Part shown: piece by piece, positions 1 to 3,000 of the stretch
Numbering within the stretch: position 1 is the first letter of the stretch
How the letters are laid out: the number at the start of each line of letters is the position of its first letter
Virus record (IMG/VR): IMGVR_UViG_2630968933_000007
Coordinates: 53,025-117,024 of that record
DNA length: 64,000 nt
Strand: one strand, 5' to 3'
Source of the DNA: a virus
Taxonomy: Duplodnaviria; Heunggongvirae; Uroviricota; Caudoviricetes
Made by a program: the position numbers

Positions 1-3000
1 TCCGGTGCCTATGGCAATGATGGCGGATCGCTACTTCACCACCAAAAAGGACGGCAAAACTTACTACATTAAACTTCATGATCCGCGCCTGATGCGTGCG
101 ATGAAGAACATGGGGCCGGAAACCAGTAACGCCGTAATCCGTACGCTGGGGAAAGTTAACCGTTTCCTGGCAACGGTGAACACGTCGTATAACCCGGAAT
201 TTCTGGTCAGTAACTTCATCCGTGACGTGCAGACGGCGGTGATGAACCTGAAGGCGGAGCAGGGAAGGAGCGACGGTAAACTGAAAGGGCTGGATAACTT
301 ATCCGCCCTGGCTGTAGTCAAAGACAGCCGTTCTGCAATGTCAGCCGTGTACGCCAGTCTGCGTGGCAAAACCCTCACGGGCAAAGGCGCACAGTGGCAG
401 AAAGTGTGGAAAGAGTTTGTTGAGGACGGAGGTAAAACCGGCTGGTTTAACATGGGTGACCTTGAAGGCCAGAAGAAGGAAATGGATCGCCTTGTATCGC
501 TGGCGAAGGGAGGATGGAAAGGCCAGAGTATCGGTGCATGGCATTCGTTCCTGAACCTGGTCGAGGATGCCAACGGCGCGGTTGAAAACGCTCTGCGTCT
601 TTCTGCCTATAAACACGCCCGTGATGCCGGTTTGTCACGCCAGCAGGCGGCATCTCTTGCCAAAAACATGACGGTGAACTTTAACCGTCGTGGTGAGCAG
701 GGAGCGCTGATGAACTCGCTGTATATGTTTGCCAACGCCAGCATTCAGGGGACCGCAAACCTGGTGAGAACGCTCGGACATCTTAATGGCGACGGGCCGT
801 TACCGGAGCGCCTTCGCTGGAAGAATCTCAATGTACCGCAGAAAATCGCGCTTGCAGCTGTGGGAGCGGGTTATCTGCTTGGCTCGCTTAACCGCAGTGT
901 TGCGGGGGAGGATGATGACGGGGTTAACTGGTACGACAAGGTGCCGTATCATGTGAAAGAGCGTAACCTCGTCATTATGAAATCGATGTTCGGGGGCAGG
1001 GCCGGAGAGTACTGGAGTATTCCTCTGCCTTACGGGTACAACGTTTTCTTCCTGCTCGGGCATACCTCTGAAGGTGTGGCTGCTGGTGACCTGACGGCGT
1101 CCCGTGCTGCCGGTAATGTTGTCGGTGGTATCCTGGGGGCATTCAGCCCGATTGGCAGTGAGACGTCGGAAACGCTGTCCGGGGCATTGCTGAAAAATGC
1201 AGCACCGACAATTCTGCGTCCGTTTGCGAATCTTGCCATGAACGAAAACTTCATGGGGGCGCAGATTTACCAGGAGAACATGCCGTTTGGTACACCAAAA
1301 CCTGACAGCCAGCTGGGAAGACGTTCAACGCCAGAAGCGTACAAGGCGTTTGCATCCTGGCTGAATGCGTTCTCAGGTGGCAGCCAGTATCGTCCCGGCG
1401 CGGTGGATATCACACCGGAATCGCTGAAATTCTGGATTGACTATATCTCCGGAGGGACAGGGCGCTTCATTTCCAAAACCACAGATGCGGCGGTGAAATC
1501 GCTGAACGGTATTGATATACCGGAGCAGCAGGTGCCCTTCCTGGGGAAAATTTCGGGTGAGGTGATGCCGTATGCAGACCAGCAGAAGATGTACGACCGG
1601 ATGACAGAGGTTGCGCAGTATCACGCAGAGCTGAAGAGTCTGACCGGTGCAGAAAGAACGGCGTTCATTGACGAGAACAACGGAAAATTGTTGATGAACG
1701 GGCTTATGCAGGATACCCGGAAGAGACTGAAGGATTTGCGCAAACAGCGCGATGCCATTTATGCCGACAGTTCTCTCAGTCTGGCGCAGCAGGCGGCGAT
1801 GGTGAAATCGGTAGAGCGGGATATGAAGGTTGCCGTGGATCGCTTTAACCGCGAGTACAACAAAAAAGTGGGAGTGGATTAACAGAAATGGCCCCGTACG
1901 GAAGTGCGGGGCTGATTAAGAAATAAACACACATTAACCTGTAATAACCGGAGCTATTAACATATAGTCAGAAAGAGTATTTCATGTGAGACAGAGAGCC
2001 GATTTATGTTTAATGAAGAAAAAGTTGCGTAAATGGCAGCGTATTTGCTGAAAAAACATGGCGGATCTATGCGTTTCATTAAGCTGATGTATCTCTCTGA
2101 CCGCAAAGCAATGGAGTTGTATGGTTTTCCCATTAGTGGTGATCATTATTTCTCTATGAACAAAGGACCCGTTTTATCGCAGACATATTCTTTGGTTAAG
2201 GATGGAAGTGAAAACGAGTACAGTCCGTGGGAATCATGGATATCTGATGTAGCGGATCATAAGGTTGAAATGTGGCGTACATTTTCTTCTGTTGATGAGC
2301 TGGGGGAGTTATCGCCCGCAGAAATAGAGTCAATGGACATAATTTTTGGTCAATATGGAGGTTGGGATGCGTTCAGGCTTTGTGATGAAACTCACAGAAT
2401 TTGCGGTGAGTGGCGCGATCCGCATGGTTCATCAATTCCAATCAGCCTTAAGGATATATTTATTGCTCTTGGAAAGTCGCCAGAAGCAGCAACAGTAATG
2501 GCGAATAGCATTTATGCGCAAAATAATCTTGATATATTATTAAGTGATCTGAGGTAGTCGGGATGATGTTCAGCCCTTATTTGTATTTACCGGGGAGGGA
2601 AGATGTTTAATTCCGATTCCCCGGCTCCACAGGCCTAACCTAACTTTATGTAACAGTCCATGCAGGGCTGAAATCTGCCTGCTGAAATAACTCCGTTAGC
2701 CCGCTAATCTGCTTTAACCTCAGAACTTCATCCTGGTCCATCCCCAGTTCTGTTCCGATACGTTCATCAGTCCAGCCAAGACGTGAAAGATCTCTGACAA
2801 TATCAGACATTGAGGTTATCTGGTGTTTCCCCCTGGCTCTGTTATGTCGGATAGTCGCGGCAATACGTGAGGTTTGTCCCTTTCGGTCTGGATTAATACA
2901 GGTTACTGGTAGCCAGCCTTTCAGGCGTTTTCCAGTAACTGTTCTTCTACCTAGTAACTGCCTATGAAAACCATCCACCACCAGGTAATGGCTTGTTTCT

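Follow-up and report, generated by a model that had tools for sequence, protein, structure and literature searches.

The locus described here raises the question of why an antitoxin gene should stand without a toxin. It lies in a 64,000-nucleotide (nt) stretch of viral DNA, positions 53,025 to 117,024 of IMG/VR record IMGVR_UViG_2630968933_000007, which we will call the window. The gene, panA, encodes an antitoxin of the Panacea (DUF4065) family and occupies positions 2033..2557 of the plus strand, with ATG at 2033, TAG at 2555-2557 and a product of 174 amino acids (aa). We consider it quite likely that this gene is the antitoxin that survives from a phage-borne PanA-PanT cassette, a type II toxin-antitoxin (TA) system, after deletion of the toxin gene, and that panA is now eroding. 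The orphan state would then exist because the partner was deleted, and not because the partner is of an unusual kind. No new toxin class or pairing is needed to account for it: a conserved MazF-fold toxin gene was lost, and the remaining gene is a leftover of an already known type of TA pair.

A preliminary description of the locus had placed the gene in the Panacea family, and this was borne out by profile search. PF13274 (SocA_Panacea) matched the 174-aa protein over profile positions 2-112 of 113 with an E value of 2.4e-19, and the score of this family hidden Markov model, 70.7 bits, lies above the Pfam gathering score of 25.7. The protein also matched phrog_1281 (E 1.4e-38) and positions 10-186 of the PanA subfamily profile, and an identical protein in RefSeq carries the name 'Panacea domain-containing protein'. 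No DNA-binding or other additional domain was detected in it by a Pfam-type family scan, no PADLOC model matched it, and a simple scan of positions 1800-2750 found no sigma-70-like promoter. Two antisense open reading frames (ORFs) over the start of panA (1957-2133 and 1982-2146, minus strand) were considered as toxin candidates and rejected, as neither had a family match.

The partner that such a gene would normally have was evident from its homologs. In contigs with homologs at 46-69% identity (Mixta, an E. coli P2-like prophage and Yersinia), an ORF of about 134 aa is located directly 3' of panA on the same strand, regardless of whether a gene had been called there in the source. A PanA profile scan with one genome per species returned 36 loci, 26 of which belonged to the subfamily of the window PanA. 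The full partner lay directly downstream on the same strand in 19 of these 26 loci, mostly at a spacing of -4 (ATGA overlap) and otherwise at -8 to +10; only a partner remnant or fragment was present in five, and none in two. Within a phage collection, exactly ten records contained a PanA homolog, and the partner followed immediately in nine of them (E. coli phages SKA5 and Lys8385Vzw, Yersinia YeP1-3, Klebsiella phi12.5, Pseudomonas Sirocco, a Vibrio phage and a Helicobacter prophage); the sole partnerless record was PhiR5_2, the phage of the window. The same pair was found in a Salmonella-type lambdoid prophage (59% identity) and in ten Proteus loci, and both genes of a related intact cassette were present in 206 of 5,426 complete E. 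coli genomes (about 4%). By these species-level and phage counts, the subfamily has the organization of Kurata-type PanAT pairs, in which a second gene lies no more than 100 nt from panA within a unit of two or at most three genes, and the window does not. Toxin loss with the antitoxin kept is recurrent in the PanA family, because four further loci from Thiotrichaceae, Parabeggiatoa and Scytonema (L016, L018, L023 and L036) also retain an intact PanA followed only by an N-terminal fragment of the partner.

A structure search revealed a MazF/Kid/CcdB-like fold in the partner product. At the sequence level, no Pfam match was obtained at E values up to 10, comparison of the partner profile with PDB sequences gave chance-level matches only, and the probability returned by hhalign against E. 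coli MazF was 0.2%. The family corresponds to phrog_19071, has no Pfam entry and is named "hypothetical protein" everywhere; it can now be annotated as a MazF/CcdB-fold PanT-like toxin. A MazF/PemK/CcdB-like fold without a sequence-level domain hit is what characterizes toxin cluster T6 of Kurata et al. 2022 (PMC8832971), whose members have no CDD hit and show similarity to EndoA/PemK/MazF by HHpred only. In T6 the antitoxin precedes the toxin, with a spacing of mostly -4 or -1, and the members come from Proteus, Pantoea, Pluralibacter, Photorhabdus, Yersiniaceae, Beggiatoa, Methylococcales and Pseudomonas (PMC8832971). The subfamily studied here resembles T6 in all these respects: a stand-alone Panacea antitoxin of about 185 aa with the N terminus MF/IFxExKVAQ, the same gene order with a -4 or -1 overlap in the relatives of the window gene, a partner of about 134 aa whose MazF-like fold is seen by structure or profile methods only, and occurrence in Proteus, Erwiniaceae, Yersiniaceae, Thiotrichales, Methylococcales and Pseudomonas. 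The window itself differs from T6 in that its toxin gene is a stub of 15 codons and its antitoxin is devoid of the first nine residues and of a KLL tripeptide. The validated T6 pair, from Pseudomonas moraviensis, forms a complex and its toxin is listed with those PanT toxins whose influence on protein synthesis was assayed (PMC8832971); the N terminus of its PanA reads MIFSEQKVAQ, compared with MFNEEKVAQ in the ancestral ORF of the window. Moreover, a 135-aa Proteus protein named 'MULTISPECIES hypothetical protein' (P0159) is 51% identical to the E. coli partner and in every case follows a 188-aa PanA at a spacing of -4; its name, size and context agree with the Proteus vulgaris entry of T6. 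The partner family very likely belongs to T6, with a match by accession or sequence to WP_083201923.1 (the P. moraviensis PanT) and WP_072063026.1 (Proteus) not obtained.

Alignments of the partner family contain invariant His20, His65, Gly94 and Gly113 and near-invariant Asp55 and Cys58, and these residues fall in the motifs HLH(I/V)(I/V)C.DP and GDHPFI.H.SY. As they differ from the canonical catalytic residues of MazF, the biochemistry of the partner may differ from that of MazF as well. In a Parabeggiatoa metagenome-assembled genome, a second Panacea-like ORF follows PanA in place of the MazF-fold partner (L021 3618-4139, plus strand). The pair in the Salmonella-type lambdoid prophage is followed by a third overlapping gene (L068 4046-4345, plus strand) encoding a 99-aa DUF4325 (STAS-like) protein, which may represent an accessory third component.

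What remains of the partner in the window is a stub of 15 codons (MMFSPYLYLPGREDV*; 2563..2610, plus strand), which begins 5-8 nt past the PanA stop, as in intact pairs. Its first codons align, both as DNA and as protein, with the start of an intact E. coli partner (MSFTPYRRGTVLAPSGP) and with L0135 of phage 933W (MMFTPYRRGTIPA). Except for this stub, no ORF across the 64-kb window matched the partner profiles, and the earlier statement that no toxin adjoins panA holds both beside the gene and for the window as a whole. In 933W and about 159 similar E. coli genomes, only scraps of both genes are present at the same position. The PanA remnant of 933W comprises 31 codons (MFNEEKVAQMAAYLLKKHGGSMRFIKL...; L003 5123-5218), in which an internal deletion led to a frameshift and an early stop. 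L0135 (62 aa, L003 5283-5471) consists of the N terminus of the partner fused to its C-terminal third; it scored an E value of 1e-6 in an hmmsearch against the fetched loci, and phrog_1925, to which it corresponds, matches partner residues 92-127. Two other families, phrog_28947 and phrog_3658, match the N terminus of PanA. Judged from these alignments, L0135 (phrog_1925), phrog_28947 and phrog_3658 are to be regarded as deletion remnants of the cassette and not as genuine genes, and several small "hypothetical" ORFs of Shiga toxin (Stx)-type phages can be recognised in this way. Because the stub in the window and the scraps of both genes in 933W lie at the same position, the ancestral state of the locus was presumably a canonical panA-partner pair.

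The antitoxin gene itself is damaged. According to alignments with 933W DNA and with homolog N termini, the ancestral PanA ORF begins at ATG 2006, and the annotated ATG 2033 corresponds to ancestral Met10. The homologs start nine residues ahead of the annotated start, with the consensus MF[NS]xE[KR]xAQMAAY. In the window, the first nine ancestral codons (2006..2032, plus strand) read MFNEEKVA followed by a stop, the codon of the conserved Gln9 (CAA in 933W) being TAA at 2030-2032; this TAA is present in all examined copies of the window lineage. It abuts ATG 2033, and reinitiation at the TAA-ATG junction could plausibly yield the 174-aa product. The second lesion, located by protein alignments at site 2087..2092 (plus strand), is the in-frame loss of 9 nt from between Met19 and Tyr20. 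It deprives the first Panacea helix of its near-invariant KLL, converting LKLMKLLYLSDR into IKLMYLSDR, and this KLL is kept in 19/19 aligned homologs outside the prophage lineage of the window. Both lesions are common to all copies of the lineage, and two sister copies have deteriorated further, one by an additional 78-nt in-frame deletion in PanA (L069) and the other by insertion of an IS3 element with loss of the 5' half of the gene (L004). The window gene is hence not the full-length ORF with N-terminal segment and first Panacea helix that an intact functional PanA would have. An AlphaFold2 model of the window protein reached a predicted local distance difference test (pLDDT) score of 46 from an 8-sequence alignment, too low to judge the effect of the lesions on the fold. 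Six substitutions were seen among the lineage copies, all of them nonsynonymous and none synonymous, and the non-coding DNA on either side carried no change; such a pattern would fit relaxed constraint, the sample being too small for significance.

From these observations, the following course of events can be proposed. In intact relatives, panA precedes, usually with an ATGA overlap, the gene of a toxin of about 134 aa with MazF/Kid/CcdB-like fold. If the P. moraviensis T6 pair is taken as a guide, this toxin would inhibit translation, and PanA would neutralise it by direct binding. In the 933W-like lineage of the window, the toxin gene would have been deleted with 15 codons left, and the ibrBA cassette would have come to sit in its place. 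Since there was no longer a toxin to neutralise, panA would then have decayed, by the nonsense mutation of codon 9 and the loss of helix residues, and by larger deletions or IS3 truncation in sister copies; its TA role would thus have been lost. In this sense, successive stages in the decay of a TA module can be followed clearly at this locus, which belongs to the accessory region of Stx-type phages.

Several points weigh against this proposal. An intact pair was not found at the exact position in a 933W-like phage, and the search for intact pairs in E. coli with the 933W remnant as a query was swamped by a 3' repeat of about 40-50 nt that matched thousands of genomes. Assignment to T6 is based on matching properties and on the name and context of the Proteus protein, and not on a sequence match to a validated toxin. 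Toxicity of the partner, likewise, is presumed from the analogy with P. moraviensis. As for panA, its 174-codon ORF is still open, and about 18 complete genomes as well as an inducible phage carry it in (nearly) identical form. The copies are too alike for a ratio of nonsynonymous to synonymous rates (dN/dS), and their substitution counts do not deviate significantly from neutrality. Finally, TAA-ATG is a classic reinitiation arrangement, and the protein may still be made and be useful.

If so, panA could be a functional solitary antitoxin acting in trans, neutralising related MazF-fold PanT toxins of other prophages or of the host in an anti-addiction or anti-abortive-infection role. Potential targets exist, because related intact cassettes of PanA and partner occur commonly in E. 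coli, both in the 206 genomes mentioned above and in the P2-like prophage. Kurata et al. (PMC8832971) showed that PanA specificity can be broadened by a few substitutions, and intact PanA beside a degraded partner recurs in the four loci L016, L018, L023 and L036. However, the window copy is without nine conserved N-terminal residues and three near-invariant helix residues, and nothing resembling a promoter was detected upstream by the simple scan; further deletion or truncation in the sister copies, together with loss of the gene from 933W-type phages, argues against selection to keep PanA. We regard a function in trans as unlikely. A special form of it, in which the reinitiated 174-aa PanA would be an anti-defence decoy against resident PanAT toxins (about 4% of E. 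coli genomes) and enable a 933W-like phage to evade abortive infection or addiction mediated by PanAT, appears distinctly improbable. The preliminary description had also allowed for a solitary regulator, and a stand-alone Panacea protein outside TA biology, such as a sensor or regulator of prophage genes, is indeed conceivable: about half of DUF4065 proteins occur outside recognisable TA-like loci (Kurata et al., PMC8832971), and a sensory function has been proposed for the Panacea domain (Ernits et al. 2023, PMC10440598). Yet the comparison of gene neighbourhoods, in which consistently stand-alone homologs would have spoken for such a role, showed the subfamily to be consistently paired, in the canonical antitoxin-then-toxin order, with the MazF-fold partner of about 134 aa. 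As the protein contains no DNA-binding or other extra domain and its gene bears lesions and has been repeatedly lost, we hold a stand-alone role to be very unlikely.

The two neighbours of panA had also been suggested as its counterparts, and neither suggestion withstood comparison with other genomes. The upstream ORF, taken before as a 625-aa protein of unknown function whose C-terminal part might be the toxin, is in fact the C-terminal end of a polyvalent LPD38 protein of about 2,790 aa, a homolog of L0134 of 933W, cut by the start of the window (5..1882, plus strand, the last 625 of about 2,790 codons). It matched PF18857 (LPD38) with an E value of 1.3e-48 and covers positions 2170-2793 of the 2793 of phrog_616. 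Same-strand adjacency is all that would speak for its toxicity, whereas this conserved virion/polyvalent protein is kept in 933W-type phages in which PanA is the 31-codon scrap, and PanA homologs elsewhere are not located beside LPD38 genes. Moreover, the two genes are separated by a 150-nt spacer with a strong G+C-rich hairpin (1890..1913, plus strand; -20.5 kcal/mol, z -5.6, 0/200 shuffles folding as well), likely the terminator of LPD38 as a late gene, which sets that gene apart from PanA. A toxin in this protein is thus extremely improbable. On the other side, an ibrB-like (ParB_N-like) and an ibrA-like (PAPS reductase and DUF3440) gene, recognised by family matches, occupy 2646..4501 on the minus strand, with the ibrB-like gene 88 nt downstream of PanA and convergent to it. 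That PanA should be paired with them as a regulator or antidote could be argued from adjacency, which is confined to the window lineage (about 19 E. coli genomes and PhiR5_2). Against this, ibrAB-like pairs are present in 1,930 of 5,426 E. coli genomes and the full PanA sequence in just 18, the inspected ibrAB contexts of sequence type 131 (ST131) and O157:H7 contain no Panacea gene, no PanA homolog locus elsewhere carries ibrAB, and the convergent genes form no operon. A pairing is scarcely credible, and ibrBA is unrelated cargo now located in the place of the lost partner gene.

SocA of Caulobacter crescentus is a ClpXP adaptor that mediates degradation of its toxin SocB. The antitoxin of the window has the same Panacea/DUF4065 domain; the SocA-SocB system differs in that the partner of the window subfamily has a MazF fold and would be expected, by analogy, to be bound directly, and in that the window is without a partner. 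SocA-SocB is the source of the Pfam family name and forms cluster T10 in Kurata et al. (PMC8832971). From MazEF, Kid-Kis and CcdAB, the subfamily is distinguished by three features: the partner has no detectable sequence similarity to these toxins (by Pfam, PDB profile search and hhalign to E. coli MazF), the partner family has extra C-terminal helices, and the antitoxin is a Panacea domain and not of the MazE, Kis or CcdA type. A different parallel is offered by anti-addiction modules, for which Saavedra De Bast and colleagues are said to have described in 2008 that the chromosomal ccd of Erwinia chrysanthemi protects against the ccd of the F plasmid. The window gene is similar in being an antitoxin without a toxin in cis, in a mobile element, with related intact systems in the same species, but its lesions suggest decay and not maintenance.

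The first 6400 positions of the window represent the right arm of a 933W-like (Sepvirinae) prophage integrated in E. coli ynfG. A query of 818 nt (1883-2700), comprising panA and the beginning of the ibrB-like gene, matched E. coli G1/2 (CP060083) and the inducible phage PhiR5_2 (PV340546) with 100% identity. A complete LPD38 coding sequence of about 8.4 kb is annotated in both; according to RefSeq, the gene is frameshifted in G1/2 (L002 3636-12000, upstream of the window start) and intact in PhiR5_2. Between the convergent PanA and ibrB-like genes there is an inverted repeat (2590..2624; -18.4 kcal/mol on the plus strand and -22 kcal/mol on the minus strand), whose folding is not significant (z -1.1 and -1.8, respectively). 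It may act as a bidirectional terminator, and it sits inside the region that must hold the deletion/replacement junction. Farther downstream, Rfam detected two matches to sRNA-Xcc1 (RF02221) on the minus strand (5368-5453 and 5902-5990; 73 and 69 bits, gathering score 53), each about 40 nt 5' of a gene for an AntA-family antirepressor (RefSeq starts 5327 and 5861). These matches look like a conserved 5' leader of AntA-family antirepressor genes. At the insertion site, ynfG, the gene for a 4Fe-4S subunit, is reduced to an 84-nt fragment beside ynfF (about 6270-6400 in the window, L002 16425-16508).

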